DNA from: an uncultured Pseudomonadota bacterium
GTDB taxonomy: Bacteria > Pseudomonadota > Alphaproteobacteria > JACZXZ01
Length of the DNA: 64,000 nt
Assembly: GCA_963749075.1 (NCBI GenBank)
Contig: CAVVLJ010000016.1
Span: 1,120,001 to 1,184,000, forward strand
Direction of reading: 5' to 3'
The translations under genes and the position numbers were made by a program. The notes below the pieces were generated by a model. The model searched no databases, had not been told where the DNA came from, and saw only the letters and a program-made list of their open reading frames with translations. Below are positions 50,541 through 59,032 of the stretch, one piece after another. The number at the start of each line of letters is the position of its first letter. The first letter of the stretch is position 1.

Positions 50541-51281
50541 TCAGCCGCCGTCCTCCTTCGCGCATTGCACGAGCGCCGCGATGCGGCGGAGCTCCGCGTC
50601 CGCCCCGCCCGCGGCTGCCGCGGCCGAGCGGAATGCTATGCCGTGGGCGGCGAGGAAACGCTTGATGTCGCCGGCGGGCACCGCGACGCTCTCGTCGGGC
50701 CGGGCGACGAATTGGCCGATGATCATGCCTCGGAGGATGCCCGCCTCGTCGAGGACGGGTCCGCCGCTGTTGCCCTCGCGGAGGCTCGCCTCGATCACCA
50801 GCACGCGGCGGCCCGACGGCACGGCCGCCATGCCGACCACGGTGCCCTCCGTCAGCACCGCCGCCTCGGGATTGTCGGGGACCAGGCCGTAACCGATGAC
50901 CGTCACGGAGCTGCCGGTGGGCAACGCCGGGCGGCGGGGGAGTAGGGCCGCCGCCGCGCGCGCGCCGGACGTGCTGAGAAGCGCCAGGTCGCGCGCCGCG
51001 TCGAGTGCTACGAGCTTGGCGTCCTGCGGCGGCCGCTGCGGCTGCCAGAGCGAGATGCGGCGGCACGCGGCCACCACATGCGCGCTCGTCAGGAGATAGC
51101 CGGCACTCGACACGAAGAAGGCGGTGCCGCTGCGCACGAGGGGCGCCGACGGCGTGGTCCCGGCGGCAAGCGCGCTTGCGAGGGTGCTCGACAGAAGCCA
51201 AAGAGCAAGCACGGCCCGGGCGTGCGCGGCCCGCCGGCGCCAGGCTGCCGCACGCCCCGCGGCCGCCGCGGCGCTCCTCAC
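50541..51281 (-). CDS. exported trypsin-like serine protease, 246 aa
   Basis: GTG overlaps the kinase stop; Arg-rich n-region plus hydrophobic signal ending ALA; SGTAFFV, LLTSAHVV (His), DLALL (Asp), GNSGGP (Ser). Confidence 0.85.
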   Translation of the reverse strand: MRSAAAAAGRAAAWRRRAAHARAVLALWLLSSTLASALAAGTTPSAPLVRSGTAFFVSSAGYLLTSAHVVAACRRISLWQPQRPPQDAKLVALDAARDLALLSTSGARAAAALLPRRPALPTGSSVTVIGYGLVPDNPEAAVLTEGTVVGMAAVPSGRRVLVIEASLREGNSGGPVLDEAGILRGMIIGQFVARPDESVAVPAGDIKRFLAAHGIAFRSAAAAAGGADAELRRIAALVQCAKEDGG

Positions 51282-53425
51282 ATTGCCCAGATGCCGCGCC
51301 GCGCCGCCTTCGCCTGCTGCTCGGCAACGCGGTACTTCGAGGGTGCGCCGGGCCGCACGCGGGCGGCCCCATTGAGCACGGCGGCCTCGGCGAGGTCGAC
51401 TTTGCCCACGTGGCACTCGAAGGAGCGCCCCGGCCGCGCGAAGCAGCTCACGCGATTGCCCATCTGCTCGATGTAGTGCTGCATGGCGGTCGCGAGCTGT
51501 CCGGTCTCGCCGCGAATGCCGTAGAGGTTGACGACCTTTCCGGCCACCACCAGCGCCGCCGAGTTGAGCACGGCGCTGACCTCGCCCTCGATGTCCGGGG
51601 TCGCGCCCGAGACGGCAGGCGGTTGCGCGGTGTTGGGCGGCAGCGAGGCGACTTGCGGCGGATGCGTTTGCTCGCTCGACGGCAGTCCCGTCGCCGCGGG
51701 CGCTTGCGAGCCCGATGCCGCGGGCGATGGCGTGCCTGTGGCGGCGGGCTGGGAGCCGGCGGCCGGAGCGGCCGGTTGCGGCGCCAAGGACGTGTTCGTC
51801 GCGATCACCAACGAGTTGTCCGGCTTCGCAGGCGCCTGGATGGCGGCGGGCGGCTGCGCCGGCGGATTCGTGCTCGCGACGGGCGTCGTGGGCGCGGCTG
51901 GCGTCGCCGTCGGCGCAGCTGCGGATGCCGGCGACGGCGCCGCGGCCGGCGGCGATGCCGAGGCTACGGGAGTTGACGGGGGGGCGGCGGGCGGTGCTGT
52001 CGTGGCCGGCTGCGTCGGCGCCGTTGCCGGCGGCGAGGCCGAAGCCGCGGGGGCAGCTGGCGGCGCGGTTGCACTCGGCGATGATGTGGCGGCCGCAGGC
52101 GCCGGTGCCGCGGGCGGCGAAGCGGGCGGCGCCACGGCGCTTGCCGGCGGCGAGGCCGGGGCGCTCGGCAGCGGGGAGGCGGGCGCCTCCTTGGCGGCCG
52201 GCGCCGGCTCCGCCGCCGCGCTCCGAAGCGGATGAGCCGGCGCCGGCGGCTCTTGCGTTTCCTTGGCCGCGGAGGCGGTGGCCGCCGGCGGCGCCTGCTC
52301 GGCGACGACGGGCTTGGCCGTCGGTCCCGATGCCAGGACCACGTAGCCGAGCCCGGCGAGCAGCACCGCCGCGACGCCGCCGAGGACCATGGCCGGCATT
52401 CGCATGGCCGGCGGCAGCGCGCTCAGGAGGGGGAGGGTCGCTTTCTTCGCCCCTTGTCCCGGGCGGTCGGCGACCGCGCTCTGGGCGGCGGTGGCCTGCG
52501 CGGGCGCCTCGAGCGACAGCGAGCCGCCGGTGCTCATCAGCCGGGTGGCCGGCGGCGGCAAGGCACCCCAGCGCGCCACCACCGTCTCCTTGACGATGTC
52601 GGCGGCCTCGCCCTGGATCGCCGCGGCGCCGAGCGCGCGGCCGAACTCGTCGACGGAGGCGTAGCGCTCCTCGGGTTTCTTGGCCAGCGCCCGCATCATC
52701 ACGCTCTCGACGTTGGGATCGAGGTCGGGCACCTGGCCGGCGAGGGGCGGCGGTCGCTGCTCGACCTGGGCGCGGATGAGCTCGTATTCGCTGGTGGCAT
52801 TGAAGGCGCAATTGCCGGAGAGGAGCTCGTAGAGCACCATCGAGAGGCTGTAGAGGTCGCTGCGCGCGTCGCCCTCGGCACCCTGGAGCTGCTCCGGCGA
52901 CATGTAGGCGAGCGTGCCGATGAGGTCGCCCTGCCGCGTCATGCGCTGCGAGCCCTGGATGCGGGCGATGCCGAAATCCATGATCTTGAGCAGCCCGCTG
53001 TCGGTGACCATGAGATTGGCGGGCTTGATGTCGCGGTGGATGACGCCCATGCGGTGAGCGTAGGAGAGGCCGGCCACCGTCTGCGCCATGATGGCGAGGC
53101 ACTCGCGCACGCCGAGGCGGCCGGCCTTGCCGAGGATCGCCTCGAGCGTGTTGCCGCGCACCAGCTCCATCACCATGAAGAGCTCGTCGCCTTCCTTGTG
53201 CAGCGAAAAGAGCGTGGTGATGTTGGGGTGGTTGAGGCGGGCGAGGTTGGTGGCCTCGCCGCGGAAGCGCTCGAGGAAGCCGCGGTCGCGGCTGAACTCC
53301 GGGCGCAGCGCCTTGATCGCCACGGGCCGGCCGAGCAGCTGATCCACCCCGGCATAGACCTCGCCGATGCCGCCCTTGCCGAGCTGCTCGTGGATCTCGT
53401 AGGGGCCGATGACGCGAAAGCTCAT
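51278..53425 (-). CDS. Hanks-type Ser/Thr kinase with TM, Pro/Ala linker and C-terminal SNase-like domain, 715 aa
   Basis: LGKGGIGEVY, VAIK, HRDIKPAN, DFGIAR, GTLAYMSPEQ, SDLYSL; TM AMVLGGVAAVLLAGLGYVVL; C-terminus LYGI...VSC...C...DLAEAAVLNGAA...Y..AEQQAKAARRGIW. Confidence 0.9.
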   Translation of the reverse strand: MSFRVIGPYEIHEQLGKGGIGEVYAGVDQLLGRPVAIKALRPEFSRDRGFLERFRGEATNLARLNHPNITTLFSLHKEGDELFMVMELVRGNTLEAILGKAGRLGVRECLAIMAQTVAGLSYAHRMGVIHRDIKPANLMVTDSGLLKIMDFGIARIQGSQRMTRQGDLIGTLAYMSPEQLQGAEGDARSDLYSLSMVLYELLSGNCAFNATSEYELIRAQVEQRPPPLAGQVPDLDPNVESVMMRALAKKPEERYASVDEFGRALGAAAIQGEAADIVKETVVARWGALPPPATRLMSTGGSLSLEAPAQATAAQSAVADRPGQGAKKATLPLLSALPPAMRMPAMVLGGVAAVLLAGLGYVVLASGPTAKPVVAEQAPPAATASAAKETQEPPAPAHPLRSAAAEPAPAAKEAPASPLPSAPASPPASAVAPPASPPAAPAPAAATSSPSATAPPAAPAASASPPATAPTQPATTAPPAAPPSTPVASASPPAAAPSPASAAAPTATPAAPTTPVASTNPPAQPPAAIQAPAKPDNSLVIATNTSLAPQPAAPAAGSQPAATGTPSPAASGSQAPAATGLPSSEQTHPPQVASLPPNTAQPPAVSGATPDIEGEVSAVLNSAALVVAGKVVNLYGIRGETGQLATAMQHYIEQMGNRVSCFARPGRSFECHVGKVDLAEAAVLNGAARVRPGAPSKYRVAEQQAKAARRGIWAM

Positions 53426-54330
53426 GAGGGACCTCCGGCCGGAGGTGCAGCGCTCAGGGAGCGCGTGATGCCGGCCGGCGACGCCGGCGGCGGCAAGTCG
53501 CTCAAGGCGAAGACGCCGACCGAGACGTTGTCGTGGCCGCCGGCCGCGAGTGCCGCGGCGATCAGCGCTTCGCAGGCGCCTGCGGGCGGCAGGTGCGCTA
53601 TGGTCTCGCCGATCGCGGCGCTCTCCACCAAGTCGCTGAGGCCGTCCGAGCATAGCACGAAGATGTCGCCCGGAGAGAGCGGCATGCCGTCGCGCCAGAT
53701 CGCCGGATCGGCATGCGGCGCCGTGCCGAGCGCCTTGAGGATGACGTTGCGGTCGGCGCGGCTGCGGGCCTCCTCGGCGCTGATGGCTCCCATGCGCACG
53801 AGCTCGCCGACGAGGGAATCGTCGTGGCTGATCTGGCGGAGCTCGCTGCCGCGCAGCAGATAGGCGCGGCTGTCCCCGATGTGTCCGAGGAATGCCCGAT
53901 CGCCGAGCAGGGCGAGCGCCGTGCAGGTCGTCCCCATGCCGGCGCACACCGGATCGCTGCGGCTCTTCTCGAAGATCGCGCGGTTCGCGGCGGTGAAGCC
54001 CGCTGCGAGCGCCTTCTGCGGACTGCCGGCGTCGGCGAAATAGACGCGCATCAGCGTCTCGGCGGCAAGCAGGCTCGCCACCTCGCCCGCGGCGTGTCCG
54101 CCCATGCCGTCGGCGACCACCGCGAGGAGCCCGCGGCCGGTGGCGATGTCGCCCTCGCGCGGGATGACGTAGGCCACGCTGTCCTCGTTGTTGCTGCGCA
54201 CGCGGCCGGGATCGCTGCGCATGGCACCGCTGACGAAGAGCCCAGTGCCCGCAGGCCTTTCCGCCGTCACCATCGCCATGGGTCGTGCGCTCGCTCCGCC
54301 ATCCGCCGCAGCCTCGCTCGCCCGGCTCAC
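53422..54330 (-). CDS. PP2C/Stp1-family Ser/Thr phosphatase
   Basis: SDPGRVR.NNED, VADGMGGH.AGEVAS, GMGTT, HIGDSRAY, LCSDGL, GGHDN. Confidence 0.93.
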   Translation of the reverse strand: MSRASEAAADGGASARPMAMVTAERPAGTGLFVSGAMRSDPGRVRSNNEDSVAYVIPREGDIATGRGLLAVVADGMGGHAAGEVASLLAAETLMRVYFADAGSPQKALAAGFTAANRAIFEKSRSDPVCAGMGTTCTALALLGDRAFLGHIGDSRAYLLRGSELRQISHDDSLVGELVRMGAISAEEARSRADRNVILKALGTAPHADPAIWRDGMPLSPGDIFVLCSDGLSDLVESAAIGETIAHLPPAGACEALIAAALAAGGHDNVSVGVFALSDLPPPASPAGITRSLSAAPPAGGPS

Positions 54331-56072
54331 TGCACCTTTTGCAATTGCATGATGTCGCGGCCGTACTTGATCGGCACGGCGAAGGTCACGCGCTCGCTGC
54401 CGCGCGTGCGCGAATAGGTGAAGAGTCCGATGACCTTGCCGGCCGAATCGAAGACGGGTCCGCCGCTGTTGCCGGCGCCGGTTGCCAGCACGGTGAGCTG
54501 GTACACGTCGCCCGTCTGGCTGAGCGTCGTGACGTTGCCTTGCCGCTGCACCCCGGAGCCGAATTTGGCGATGATGCCGTCCGTCACGGTGGGCTCGGGC
54601 AGGAGCTCCTGGCGCTCCTGCGTCTGGGTGTTCTCCCGCGATTGGACCACCGCGAACTTCTTCTCGGAGATGCCTGGATAGCCGAGCACGGTGATCGGCT
54701 CGCCCAGCGTCACCTTGTCGTTGGGGTCGATCAGCTCCGTCGATGTCAGTTTCTGCGGCACGTCGATGCGGATCAAGGCCACGTCCGCGTCGGTCGAGGC
54801 GCGGATGAGCCGTGCCGCAAAGCTCAGGCGGTTGTCGGGGAAGCGGACCTCGAGCGTGTCGTTGCGGCCCTCGAAGATTTCGTCTCCCGTGAGGATCGGT
54901 CGCGGCTCGGCGCCGTCGAACATCGTGCCGCCCTCATCCGGGATCCAGTCGACGAGGCTCGCAATGGCGCTCGGGTCGATGGCCCCTCTGCCGGAGAGCG
55001 TCAGCTTGCCCTGGGGATCGCGCGTCAGCAGGTAGAGCATGCCGGCCTTGCCTTCCTCGTAGGGCGCGTCATAGCTCACCATCCAGCCCGCGGCGACATG
55101 CTTGTTGGTCAGGATGAAGCCGTCGGGGCCGACCACGAAGCCGCTGCCCGAGCCCTCGCCGCCGATGAGGTAGTTGGCATGGTTGTTGTCGTCGGTGGTG
55201 AGCCAGCGCACGACTTTGCCATTGGGCAATTTCACATAGCCGAGGTAGCCCTTGCCGCCTTCCGTCACGACCTTGTGGTAGACCGGCTTCCCGGTATCCT
55301 TGTCGAAGAGCCGCCAGCCCAGGCGGACATAGACCGTGGCGTCGCCGTACTTGGCGGCAATCTCCTTGGGGCTCATGCCCAGGCGCTTGTTGAGCTCCGC
55401 CGCTTGCCCCTTGGCCTCCTCGGCCTGCTGGCGCTTGAGCTCCGCCTCCGACTGGACGCTGTGATAGTAGAGGGCGCCGCCGACGATGCCGACGAGGACG
55501 AGGATGCCGGCAAGGGTGTAAATCCATATGCGGCTGGTCGCCTGGCGCTCGGCCGAGAGCATGCGCTGCACGGTCTCGCGTCCCACGGCCTGGCGCGGCG
55601 GCGAGGCGGGCGGCTGGGCGGCGGCCGGCTCGCCCGCCGAGATCACCCGCGTGGCCTCGGGTGCCGCCGAGACGACGCGCGTCGCCTCCGCGGCGCCCGT
55701 GCGGATGACGCGCGTGCGCGCCATCAGATGGGAGGGCCGCGGCTCCACGTCGAACGTCATCTTGGGACCGCCGGCGCCGAGCTCGATGGTATCGCCGGGC
55801 AACAGCTCGCTTTCGCCGCTGATCTTGCTGCCGTTGACCAGCGTGCCGTTGCTGCTCTGCAAATCGGCGATCTTGAAGCTGAGCTCCGGCGTCTTGACGA
55901 TGCGGATGGCGGCATGGCGGCGGCTCACCAGATCGTCCCGCTGCGAGTCGAAGGTGACCGCCACGTTGGGATCTCGGCCTAACGTGAGCTCCTCGAAGCT
56001 GTCGAGCGGGAACTGCTCGATCTGGTTGGCCTTGGAACCGCTGAGATGATGGATGACGATGCGACCGGGCAT
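54327..56072 (-). CDS. FHA domain-TM-trypsin-like serine protease fusion, 581 aa
   Basis: FHA: LGRD, VSRRHA, DL.SSNGTLVNG; TM IWIYTLAGILVLVGIVGGALYY; protease GSGFVV, LTNKHV, DVALI, GNSGGP. Confidence 0.9.
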   Translation of the reverse strand: MPGRIVIHHLSGSKANQIEQFPLDSFEELTLGRDPNVAVTFDSQRDDLVSRRHAAIRIVKTPELSFKIADLQSSNGTLVNGSKISGESELLPGDTIELGAGGPKMTFDVEPRPSHLMARTRVIRTGAAEATRVVSAAPEATRVISAGEPAAAQPPASPPRQAVGRETVQRMLSAERQATSRIWIYTLAGILVLVGIVGGALYYHSVQSEAELKRQQAEEAKGQAAELNKRLGMSPKEIAAKYGDATVYVRLGWRLFDKDTGKPVYHKVVTEGGKGYLGYVKLPNGKVVRWLTTDDNNHANYLIGGEGSGSGFVVGPDGFILTNKHVAAGWMVSYDAPYEEGKAGMLYLLTRDPQGKLTLSGRGAIDPSAIASLVDWIPDEGGTMFDGAEPRPILTGDEIFEGRNDTLEVRFPDNRLSFAARLIRASTDADVALIRIDVPQKLTSTELIDPNDKVTLGEPITVLGYPGISEKKFAVVQSRENTQTQERQELLPEPTVTDGIIAKFGSGVQRQGNVTTLSQTGDVYQLTVLATGAGNSGGPVFDSAGKVIGLFTYSRTRGSERVTFAVPIKYGRDIMQLQKVQ

Positions 56073-56218
56073 TAAGCCCCCCTCCCGCGATTAGACGCCG
56101 ACGCGCAAAGAACGTGCGGCGTAATATGCCATAGAATGAGGCGCGTGTGCACCGCTTGCTGGCAGGTCCACGGCCCGGGCGCGGCCCGTGCGATTACTAG
56201 CCGCCCCGGGTGCCGGCG

Positions 56219-56240
56219 CCCTGTGACGCCCGTCACAGGG
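56219..56240. promoter_or_regulatory. perfect palindrome containing a CRP-type box TGTGA-N6-TCACA
   Basis: CCCTGTGACG-CC-CGTCACAGGG; TGTGA at 56222, TCACA at 56233; between the divergent FHA operon and terC. Confidence 0.45.
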
Positions 56241-56327
56241 GGCGGCCGATGGCCTGGGCAGCCGGCTTGACTTGAGCGGGCGATCGCGGGGCTAATCGCC
56301 GGCGACGAACGCGGGGTTGGGTGCCGC

Positions 56328-58068: not shown

Positions 58069-58935
58069 TTATTGACCTGTCTTGCTGCGCTCCTCGAGCT
58101 TCGCCAGGTCCCACAGCGCGTCCATCTCGGCGAGCGAGGCGTCGGCGGTCGCCTTGCCGCGCTCGGCCAAGAGGGATTCCACCCGGCGGAAGCGGCGCTC
58201 GAACTTGGCGTTGGCCCGGCGCAGCGCCGCCTCGGGGTCGAGGGCGAGCCGGCGCGCCAGATTGACGAGGCTGAAGAGCACGTCGCCGAGCTCGTCCTCG
58301 AGCCGCGCGGGCGGGGCCGCGGCGGCAAGCTCGGCGTTGAGCTCGCGCATCTCTTCCGCGACCTTGTCGAGGATGGGTGCGAGCTCGCCCCAATCGAAGC
58401 CGACGCGCGCCGCGCGGCGCTGCAGCTTGAGCGCGCGCGTAAGCGCGGGGAGGGCGAGGGCGACGCCGTCGAGGGCGCTCGCCGCCCGCTCGCCGGCCGC
58501 TCTCGCCTTGGCCGCCCGCTCGGCCGCCTTGTGGCCCTCCCAGGCCAGGCGCTGGCTCTCGCCGTCCTTGATGTCCTCCTCGCCGAAGACGTGAGGATGT
58601 CGCCGTATCATCTTGTCGGCGATGGCTCCGGCAATGGCGTCGAAATCGAAGGTGCCGGCCTCCTCGGCAATGCGTGCGTGGAAGACGACCTGGAGGAGGA
58701 GGTCGCCGAGCTCGTCGCGCAAGCCCTCGAGGTCCTGGCGCTCGATGGCGTCCGCGACCTCGTAGGCCTCCTCGATCGTGTAGGGGGCGATGGTCGCGAA
58801 GCTCTGCGCCGCGTCCCACGGACAGCCGCGCTCCGGATGGCGGAGACGCGCCATGATCTCGATGAGGCGGTCGATGTTGCGCCGGTCGATGTTGCGCCGG
58901 TCGATGTTGCGCCGGTCGATGTTGCTCTGGGACAT
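58069..58935 (-). CDS. mazG: nucleoside triphosphate pyrophosphohydrolase MazG
   Basis: LR.PE.GCPWD..Q, IEEAYEV, DELGDLLLQVVFH, RRHPHVF, GFDW, DELGD.LF, N.KF.RRF; start set at MSQS. Confidence 0.95.
   Translation of the reverse strand: MSQSNIDRRNIDRRNIDRRNIDRLIEIMARLRHPERGCPWDAAQSFATIAPYTIEEAYEVADAIERQDLEGLRDELGDLLLQVVFHARIAEEAGTFDFDAIAGAIADKMIRRHPHVFGEEDIKDGESQRLAWEGHKAAERAAKARAAGERAASALDGVALALPALTRALKLQRRAARVGFDWGELAPILDKVAEEMRELNAELAAAAPPARLEDELGDVLFSLVNLARRLALDPEAALRRANAKFERRFRRVESLLAERGKATADASLAEMDALWDLAKLEERSKTGQ
58868..58925. repeat. 15-bp coding tandem repeat, nearly 4 copies (NIDRR) at the MazG N-terminus
   Basis: CGGTCGATGTTGCGC x3 followed by CGGTCGATGTTGC. Confidence 0.92.
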
Positions 58936-59032
58936 GGTCAAGGGCTGCTGCCGGAGGGGGAGGGGCATGGTTGCGCCGCGCGACACTCATAGCGCAGGAT
59001 CGGCCGCCGGGAAAGCAAGGAGGGTGGCCAAG

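Follow-up and report, generated by a model that had tools for sequence, protein, structure and literature searches.

We analyzed a 64,000-nt stretch of the genome of an uncultured Pseudomonadota bacterium (the window; contig CAVVLJ010000016.1, here C16, of a genome of 5.5 Mb with 70% G+C), in which four minus-strand genes lie between hflX and a divergent TerC gene, as seen in the list of open reading frames (ORFs) and their translations. In the direction of transcription, gene 1 (P0001, 54327..56072, 581 aa) encodes an FHA-transmembrane-HtrA-like serine protease without a PDZ domain, gene 2 (P0002, 53422..54330, 302 aa) a soluble PP2C phosphatase of the Stp1/PstP type, gene 3 (P0003, 51278..53425, 715 aa) a Hanks Ser/Thr kinase and gene 4 (P0004, 50541..51281, 246 aa) an exported trypsin-like protease. 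Successive genes overlap by 4 nt, with GTGA at 54327-54330 between genes 1 and 2, ATGA at 53422-53425 between genes 2 and 3, and GTGA at 51278-51281 between genes 3 and 4; the GTG start codons of genes 2 and 4 are putative. This layout had been described in an initial annotation made from the DNA letters alone and is borne out, as are the gene identities claimed there: hidden Markov model (HMM) annotation gave Pfam matches to FHA and Trypsin_2 (gene 1), PP2C_2 (gene 2, 9e-14), Pkinase (gene 3, 2e-51) and Trypsin_2 (gene 4, 9e-23), and none of the four proteins reached an NCBIfam equivalog cut-off. Genes 1–3 are a conserved, co-inherited unit, for which we propose, with belief and doubt in about equal measure, the function of a phosphothreonine-switched membrane protease, in which the kinase writes, the FHA domain reads, the PP2C phosphatase erases and the protease is gated.

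The assignment of gene 1 is based on the translation, Pfam (FHA, E = 5e-14; Trypsin_2, E = 4e-20), Foldseek and an AlphaFold2 (AF2) model built on a 40-row alignment (A2), which has a mean predicted local distance difference test score (pLDDT) of 86.4. The protein starts with a cytoplasmic FHA domain (residues 1-112; 55737..56072, minus strand, as are all features of the four genes), delimited by the alignment and modelled at pLDDT 91-98. At the phosphopeptide-binding positions, G32, R33, H53 and S73 are invariant in the 40 rows and N75 is kept in at least 90% of them. The domain is followed by a cytoplasmic linker (residues 113-183; 55524..55736), in which residues 120-164 have a pLDDT of <50, indicating predicted disorder. 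The linker carries three TRV motifs, at T120 (55707-55715), T131 (55674-55682) and T141 (55644-55652). Although the linker varies in length and sequence, the rows, which come from all phyla, all have T131, and at least 90% of them have T120. We propose the three threonines as candidate phospho-acceptor and FHA-docking sites. The end of the linker is marked by a conserved juxtamembrane GRETVQRM motif, which forms a short helix in the AF2 model, and a transmembrane helix follows at residues 182-204 according to the hydropathy scan (55461..55529), modelled by AF2 as part of a long helix comprising residues 182-231.

The periplasmic part of gene 1 is an HtrA-like protease domain (residues 235-575; 54348..55370), defined by the alignment, by the AF2 model, in which it is a confident two-barrel domain, and by Foldseek, for which the top matches are DegS, AlgW, Deg1, HtrA1 and DegP; the structural match to DegS/AlgW/HtrA reaches a template-modelling (TM) score of up to 0.77 when normalised to the target. 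The catalytic triad is H325/D430/S536, with His and Ser invariant and Asp kept in at least 90% of the 40 rows. His and Asp are separated by about 105 residues, where AF2 places extra strands and a helix, and W376 is invariant. No PDZ domain was found in gene 1 by Pfam, and the barrel of the AF2 model ends at residue 575 of 581; lacking a PDZ domain, the protease would need some other regulatory input.

Gene 2 scored 218.3 bits with the NCBIfam model for Stp1/IreP/PstP phosphatases (NF033484), against a cut-off of 230, with 230 of 232 model positions aligned, and its metal-binding motifs are present (NEDS48, DGMGG74, SDGL228 and HDN266). In gene 3, the kinase domain (52661-53401, from Pfam) has intact VAIK35, HRDIK130 and DFG150 motifs. 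The protein sequence further contains an activation loop with RMTRQ (T163; 52931-52939), a juxtamembrane ATRL motif (T294; 52538-52546), a single transmembrane helix (52316-52399) and, between the membrane and the ectodomain, a spacer of about 240 aa that is rich in Ala and Pro (78 Ala, 63 Pro; 51596-52318). The catalytic motifs that the initial annotation had read as intact in the kinase and the phosphatase are thus found in both translations, the triads of both proteases are likewise retained (H325/D430/S536 in gene 1, H68/D98/S172 in gene 4), and hydropathy and AF2 agree with the topology given there, with the FHA and kinase domains in the cytoplasm and the protease and sensor domains in the periplasm.

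The kinase ends in a periplasmic domain of 104 aa (residues 612-715; 51281..51592), delimited by alignment A3, AF2 and Foldseek, which had been called SNase-like. As a fold, this name holds: the AF2 model (pLDDT 87.3) is a staphylococcal-nuclease-like OB (oligonucleotide/oligosaccharide-binding) fold, and the Foldseek top matches in the PDB are nearly all staphylococcal nuclease, the rest being SNase domains of SND1, with TM scores of 0.58-0.67. By sequence the assignment is marginal, with 15.2 bits for PF00565, below the cut-off of 21, which a relative (L013) exceeds with 23. Among the eight homologues in alignment A3, only G15, L35, C62, C72, G87 and A89 are invariant, including two Cys residues, and the sequence aligned with the nuclease motif, GI(R/D/H)GE(T/D), is variable. 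Judged by the catalytic and Ca-binding residues of staphylococcal nuclease, the domain looks inactive and is probably not a nuclease. It is one of several interchangeable kinase ectodomains, which fall into many unrelated groups across the related loci: the SNase-fold group has seven members (the window, L013, L015, L025, L027, L035 and L050), a Sel1-repeat group and a Bacteroidota group have eight each, and many others are singletons.

Relatives of gene 1 number more than 500 in 5.8 billion proteins. The 120 matches listed are mostly full-length, and their names are only ‘FHA/trypsin-like peptidase domain-containing protein’ or ‘serine protease Do’. A scan of 1.84 billion representatives yielded 405 clusters (50%) at E ≤ 1e-30, and in the ESM Atlas this pair of Pfam domains is found in several clusters that carry no functional name. 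To follow the gene neighbourhood, we collected 80 related loci from contigs of one genome per species and mapped the four proteins of the window onto them by tblastn. These loci span eight phylum labels, including Pseudomonadota, Acidobacteriota, Bacteroidota, Rhodothermota, Abditibacteriota and Thermodesulfobacteriota. A kinase or PP2C gene lies directly downstream of the protease gene on the same strand in 77 of the 80. The order protease-PP2C-kinase is found in 30 loci, including the whole Pseudomonadota clade that holds the window, and the order protease-kinase1-PP2C-kinase2 in 47, four of which are cut by the contig end. The three exceptions are L021, with neither gene, L026, with both genes on the opposite strand, and L063, where the contig ends 25 bases past the protease gene. 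Other flanking gene families recur in no more than 14 of the 80 loci. The neighbourhood search thus recovered the trio in unrelated taxa; the four-gene order suggested for the operon does not recur in the same way, the fourth gene being found in three loci.

A maximum-likelihood tree of 78 gene 1 proteins, from which the frameshifted L042 and the 5'-cut L028 and L044 were left out, groups mostly by phylum label, with 9 label changes where the minimum is 7. Among its visible exceptions, Cupriavidus falls into the alphaproteobacterial clade, and Accumulibacter and Competibacter fall into the two-kinase clade. Since the tree mostly follows the phyla and the linkage is kept, the trio has been held together over long evolutionary distances. 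At the same time, the module is rare: 3 of 401 sampled genomes of the window's class were positive at E ≤ 1e-30, including the genome studied here and one partial match, and 8 of 301 sampled Acidobacteriota genomes were positive at E ≤ 1e-40, 6 of them with full-length matches. Harmless cultured carriers include Xanthobacter oligotrophicus, Cupriavidus ulmosensis, Spirosoma species and Methylosinus species.

In the two-kinase form, the ectodomain of the extra kinase (K1), about 100 aa long, is conserved between phyla, in 36 loci, and that of kinase2 is variable. K1 may be a periplasmic partner of the protease. We rejected the idea that K1 is a pseudokinase, as HRD and DFG are kept in 41 of 42 K1 sequences. 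The K1 ectodomain occurs in Acidobacteriota, Abditibacteriota, Bacteroidota, Rhodothermota and Accumulibacter (36 loci within L029-L090), and Pfam gives a weak hint of PEGA for it (E = 0.019). A gene for a sigma factor of the extracytoplasmic function (ECF) type, identified by its sequence and without an HMM, is found near the cassette in nine loci (L051, L053, L054, L063, L066, L074, L082, L083 and L091); these are mostly acidobacterial, the gene is mostly upstream, and an extra Hanks kinase gene usually accompanies it (kinase in 11 of the 80 loci). Several phylum labels of metagenome-assembled genomes (MAGs) look odd. The ‘Actinomycetota’ locus L036 is nearly identical to the Blastocatellia locus L038 (end branches of 0.0065 and 0.023), the ‘Heliobacteriaceae’ locus L085 nests among Acidobacteriota in the tree, and the linker of the ‘Clostridia’ locus L044 hardly differs from that of the Blastocatellia locus L030; such labels are likely to be binning errors rather than gene transfers. 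In one alphaproteobacterial MAG (L042:7980-12580), the protease, PP2C and kinase genes are each split into two frames, reflecting either a decaying copy or indels of long-read assembly.

The linker of gene 1 and the kinase share a short motif consisting of Thr, Arg and a hydrophobic residue. TR[LIVM] is present in 60 of 81 gene 1 linkers, with 96 motifs in total, and, for the main kinase, in 35 of 55 juxtamembrane segments, with 57 motifs; in 500 shuffles the mean was 5.8 and the maximum 13 for the linkers, and 3.6 and 10 for the juxtamembrane segments, a comparison that overstates significance because related sequences are not independent. The K1 juxtamembrane segments show no enrichment (3 of 39, with 3 motifs; shuffled mean 1.1, maximum 5). 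Nearly all loci have two [A/P]-T-[R/Q] sites per linker. In the juxtamembrane segment, the window kinase and the other SNase-type kinases have the form ATRL, and Acidobacteriota have two or three copies of KETRL/I. The TR-hydrophobic motif recurs in lineages as far apart as Alphaproteobacteria, Acidobacteriota and Bacteroidota. Activation loops were compared for the window kinase and for 17 of the 57 main kinases of relatives; in 16 of these 18 sequences Arg comes directly after the central Thr (RMTR, RLTR), and in two Gln or Lys does. The enrichment of TR[LIVM] in both the linker and the kinase juxtamembrane segment lends support to the suggestion of the initial annotation that phosphothreonine recruits or clusters the FHA protein.

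The genes, their domains and topology, the catalytic residues, the conserved linkage and the motif enrichment are the observed parts of the module. The logic that we apply to them is that of PknB/FhaA/GarA and PpkA/Fha1, where receptor Hanks kinases autophosphorylate threonines in the activation loop and the juxtamembrane segment, FHA proteins dock on the kinase phosphosites and are then phosphorylated, and PP2C phosphatases reverse both modifications. By this logic, gene 3 would act as a receptor-type Hanks kinase with a variable periplasmic sensor domain, which autophosphorylates at the activation loop (RMT163RQ) and at the juxtamembrane AT294RL motif. The FHA domain of gene 1 would dock on the juxtamembrane phosphosite, and the docked kinase would phosphorylate the TRV threonines of the linker, T120, T131 and T141. 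Binding of the FHA domain to the phospholinker between protease molecules, or to the kinase, would then cluster or re-orient the single-pass protein and thereby switch the PDZ-less HtrA-type protease domain in the periplasm, and the phosphatase encoded by gene 2 would reset the system. We infer each of these phosphorylation and binding steps, as well as a proteolytic output and its substrate.

Several observations weigh against this scheme. Strict TR[LIVM] is missing in 21 of 81 linkers (T[RQK] is found in 79 of the 81) and in 20 of 55 main-kinase juxtamembrane segments. The third position after the phosphothreonine (pT+3), which usually sets FHA specificity, is not conserved, so the motif may reflect the preference of the kinase and not that of the FHA domain. 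Ser50, a phosphate-contacting residue, is replaced by Gly in 7 of the 40 rows of alignment A2, as judged by eye, and L021 has no adjacent kinase or PP2C gene over 8 kb downstream. The RNA evidence consists of short, low-depth contigs over parts of all four genes from one soil metatranscriptome (e.g. 187 nt inside the PP2C gene with 0 differences), in which DNA carry-over could be involved; a transcript, an operon or strandedness cannot be demonstrated from them. Finally, the direction of the signal could be reversed, with the protease domain as the sensor.

The closest precedents share the signalling logic of the module and differ in its output. In the threonine phosphorylation pathway of the type VI secretion system (T6SS), found in Pseudomonas and Agrobacterium, the kinase PpkA and the PP2C phosphatase PppA act on Fha1/TagH; the kinase carries a periplasmic vWA domain, the FHA protein is a soluble scaffold, and the kinase is thought to recruit it and to phosphorylate it on a Thr in a disordered region. 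The module resembles this pathway (see also the abstract of PMC5995506) in encoding together a single-pass receptor Hanks kinase, a PP2C phosphatase and an FHA protein. Unlike in the T6SS pathway, its FHA protein is membrane-spanning, with a protease in the periplasm, and an SNase fold, Sel1 repeats or another domain forms the kinase ectodomain, with no vWA match in Pfam. In the genome studied here, contig C20 is the only one with matches to TssC (PF05943), at a distance of 5 kb from a separate kinase, and just two Pkinase genes were found, the one other than gene 3 lying beside these T6SS genes. The T6SS cluster (C20 at about 500-508 kb; L105) contains two TssC matches, its own Hanks kinase and no FHA match. 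Using 52 ORFs (≥120 aa) from 19 kb around the TssC matches in tblastn searches against the 80 related loci (within 8 kb), we obtained only kinase cross-matches (78 of 80 loci) and matches to an OmpA-like ORF (2 of 80), and no structural gene. The statement that no T6SS or cell-wall genes lie at the locus is therefore correct, and for T6SS structural genes it extends to the 80 related loci. The other FHA matches of the genome are on contigs C17 and C21. On C17, a second FHA protein (G000, L104:797-1834, minus strand) combines an adenylate/guanylate cyclase domain with an FHA domain that matches gene 1 at 42% identity over residues 1-174; the linker of this protein holds a TRQ site. Because the genome has only two Hanks kinases, this FHA-cyclase may be a further client of the cassette kinase.

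The actinobacterial locus has the order fhaA-fhaB-pstP-rodA-pbpA-pknA-pknB, in which FhaB/FipA is a small membrane-anchored FHA protein. The PknB-like kinase, the PstP/Stp1-like phosphatase and the FHA reader of the module are reminiscent of this locus. The scores obtained with NCBIfam models, which include FhaB_Rv0019c and PknB_PASTA_kin, are below the family cut-offs: NF033483 scored 312.8 against a cut-off of 450, covering only residues 8-299, NF049868 scored 39.5 against 125, and NF033484, as given above for gene 2, 218.3 against 230. The module further differs in lacking PASTA domains, rodA and pbpA (its neighbours are hflX and TerC) and in having a protease as its output domain. Also in actinobacteria, the FHA domains of GarA/OdhI and of Rv1747 bind phosphothreonines in a flexible segment of their own protein, within the motif ETTS, and thereby regulate cytoplasmic enzymes or an ABC transporter. 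Gene 1 similarly places an FHA domain beside a disordered segment with candidate kinase-target threonines, where self- or cross-binding may serve as a switch; the OdhI model of NCBIfam matches weakly. Unlike GarA/OdhI and Rv1747, the module would wire such a switch through a membrane helix to a periplasmic protease, and its motif is TR-hydrophobic, not ETTS.

With DegS, AlgW and HtrA (family S1C), the protease of gene 1 shares the chymotrypsin fold, the His-Asp-Ser triad, an N-terminal membrane anchor and the periplasmic location. It differs from this family in having no PDZ domain, a TIGR02037 score of 69.9 bits (cut-off 416.2), large insertions both ahead of the GSGF strand and in the His-Asp interval, and a cytoplasmic FHA domain, which to our knowledge no characterised HtrA protease has; it is HtrA-like without being a canonical member of the family. 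The kinase-kinase-phosphatase (KKP) system of Pf prophages, as described in PMC11341870, has the order PP2C-kinase-kinase, with cytoplasmic kinases fused to a CSD or an FHA domain; it is prophage-borne, with no protease and no membrane spans. Two Hanks kinases and a PP2C gene in a small operon, with an FHA domain involved, are features in common with the two-kinase form found in 47 of the 80 loci. The window differs in its order (FHA-protease, PP2C, kinase), in a kinase without CSD or FHA matches in Pfam and in its housekeeping flanks.

Alternative functions of the module were weighed against the same data. If the signal travelled inwards, the periplasmic HtrA-like domain would sense, for instance, unfolded or cleaved envelope proteins and relay this state via the helix to the FHA domain and linker, these would recruit or modulate the kinase or kinases, and the output would be cytoplasmic phosphorylation, e.g. 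of the FHA-cyclase paralogue. HtrA proteases such as DegS and DegP are indeed sensors of misfolded proteins, the protease domain is the most conserved periplasmic element of the module, the main-kinase ectodomain is highly variable and often short, and the paralogue, with its related FHA domain and TRQ linker, could be a downstream client. We nevertheless consider this reversal unlikely, given that the strictly kept triad argues for real proteolysis and not for sensing alone, and that the kinases possess ectodomains of their own (SNase fold, Sel1 repeats, about 100 aa in K1), as is typical of self-sensing receptor kinases. Another possibility is a more specific version of the phosphothreonine-switched protease that names the class of substrate: a DegS-like site-1 protease would cut a membrane regulator, for instance an anti-sigma factor or the long Ala/Pro-rich tether of the kinase itself, with the first cut gated by phosphorylation. 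DegS and AlgW, both membrane-anchored site-1 proteases, are among the top structural matches, the ECF-type sigma gene and the extra kinase gene occur near 9 and 11 of the 80 loci, respectively, the former mostly acidobacterial, and the long spacer of the window kinase would offer a target. This version appears rather improbable, as there is no sigma or anti-sigma gene near the operon in the window or in most loci, and no linked site-2 protease of the RseP type.

A role in anti-phage defence or programmed cell death, with the kinase sensing infection and one or both proteases as effectors, might be suspected from the rare and patchy distribution (3 of 401 and 8 of 301 genomes), which varies even within a genus, and from matches to PADLOC models for the PD-T4-6 and mad6 kinases and for RT-protease systems; in addition, the Cupriavidus cassette has patatin-like and PIN-like genes nearby, an identification made on the ORF sequences without HMMs. 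The PADLOC matches, however, span just the generic kinase or trypsin domains: the PD-T4-6/MADS kinase models reach an E value of 1e-93, mainly over the generic kinase domain, and the mad6 model of NCBIfam scores 163.9 against a cut-off of 460. Methylation or defence genes were found neither among the neighbours in the window, which are housekeeping genes, nor among the recurrent flanks of the 80 loci. The gene 1 tree largely follows the phyla and does not suggest rapid exchange, and the protease faces the periplasm, away from phage replication; we regard a defence function as improbable. Least plausible, to the point of being nearly negligible, is a detached regulator of a T6SS or of cell-wall synthesis (PpkA/PppA/Fha or PknB/PstP/FhaA) that acts in trans. 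The writer/eraser/reader logic is the same, and the T6SS genes of this genome have a kinase and no FHA match on their contig; yet that kinase is their own, on another contig and 35% identical to gene 3, none of the related loci has a T6SS structural gene within 8 kb, genes for PASTA, vWA, RodA or penicillin-binding proteins (PBPs) are absent, and the FHA protein is a transmembrane protease, unlike Fha1/TagH or FhaA/FhaB.

Gene 4 stands apart from the conserved unit. Its product has a signal-peptide-like N-terminus only, and its triad H68/D98/S172 (kept in 8 of 8 rows) and a Cys pair, C73/C240, are invariant. We tried and rejected an assignment to the MarP family (NF033740), for which the score was 74.5 bits against a cut-off of 250, with only the protease part aligned (model positions 202-376); the hallmark of MarP is an N-terminal multi-pass membrane domain, which gene 4 lacks. 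Relatives of gene 4 are present in just 3 of the 80 related loci (L025, L027 and L050), all with SNase-type kinases, and in these a gene for a lipoprotein of the Gly-zipper/17-kDa-antigen type sits between the trypsin and kinase genes (L025:9299-9823, L027:12268-12888, L050:12430-12960). In the window, no such lipoprotein gene was found by tblastn. Two sister genomes of the same genus, G001 and G002, have hflX, the trypsin gene and the kinase tail; in G001 the kinase and PP2C genes are seen up to the contig end, and in G002 the FHA-protease gene is on a separate short contig, with a Gly-zipper lipoprotein gene upstream of it (L103:1542-1919). In G003, which is 100% complete, hflX and the trypsin gene are followed by groES-groEL, with no kinase at 1e-40 and no FHA-protease gene, and in G005 the trypsin gene occurs without the kinase tail. 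The presence of the cassette thus varies within the genus of the window.

With relatives in three loci and a copy standing alone in a sister genome, the trypsin gene is an independent resident of the site and not part of the conserved core; it is a lineage-specific accessory, and in the genome studied here its translation is coupled to that of the kinase. The ‘self-contained’ four-gene unit of the initial annotation does not hold in this form, the trypsin gene persisting beside hflX in the sister genome. The position of gene 4 outside the core also speaks against a general ‘two-protease cascade’, an idea left without support by the three loci in which the lipoprotein gene separates the trypsin and kinase genes. 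Gene 4 is best read as an envelope accessory that, together with the Gly-zipper lipoprotein in relatives, goes with the SNase-type subgroup, possibly as a client or partner of the kinase ectodomain. A complex prediction for trypsin residues 46-246 with the SNase-fold ectodomain gave a median score of 0.18 against a mark of 0.32, a value that speaks neither for nor against binding.

As the initial annotation had noted, the operon is convergent with hflX and lies in a housekeeping region. The flank on the hflX side encodes an NtrX-like activator, a class IV aminotransferase, Hfq and HflX, and that on the other side TerC, an inositol monophosphatase (IMPase), MazG and a short-chain dehydrogenase/reductase (SDR). 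In G007, from another genus of the same family, the IMPase gene directly follows hflX, which agrees with an insertion or deletion at the cassette site. Gene 1 and the divergent TerC gene share an intergenic region (56073..56327, unstranded), which holds the Shine-Dalgarno sequence GGGAGG 5' of the gene 1 ATG and presumably the gene 1 promoter. A promoter scan did not find a sigma-70 consensus or promoter-like site, and the terminator-like sites in the same scan were at chance level only. Contigs with pieces of the region, showing few or no differences, are present in two soil-metagenome DNA runs, one of which may derive from the sample of origin. In the 5' part of the MazG gene (58069-58986, minus strand), a 15-nt direct repeat in the DNA corresponds to a tandem repeat with which the predicted protein starts, NIDRR three times and then NIDRL; this may reflect a wrongly chosen start site or a variable extension at the N-terminus.

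A full-text literature search, covering sources outside subscription journals and supplements, returned no paper on an FHA-trypsin/HtrA protein with a kinase and a PP2C phosphatase, in keeping with the initial annotation, in which the architecture was not recognised as a characterised system. Nor is the architecture described in the accessible parts of PMC7159879, PMC8195603, PMC11341870 and PMC1262709. The theme of kinase, PP2C and FHA protein is known, and the protease as its output domain is unprecedented. HtrA proteases have a central role in the quality control of the envelope and in stress signalling, and their known switches are periplasmic, namely PDZ domains and peptide ligands. We suggest, tentatively and with rather more doubt than confidence, that the module represents an unrecognised mode of transmembrane signalling, present under at least eight phylum labels, in which a ‘phospho-zipper’ of shared Thr-Arg-hydrophobic sites, read by the FHA domain, controls an extracytoplasmic HtrA-type protease from inside the cell.

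The module is compact, with three genes, widespread and present in cultured carriers, and its candidate sites can be mutated (T120/T131/T141, T294, R33 and S536); with a small module, cultured carriers and precise sites, the hypothesis is directly testable. If it is true, a cytoplasmic phosphothreonine reader in place of a PDZ domain would allow bacteria to gate periplasmic proteolysis from the cytoplasm. Hanks kinases would gain a direct, non-transcriptional output, and ATP-dependent kinase signalling would be coupled to ATP-independent proteolysis in the periplasm.

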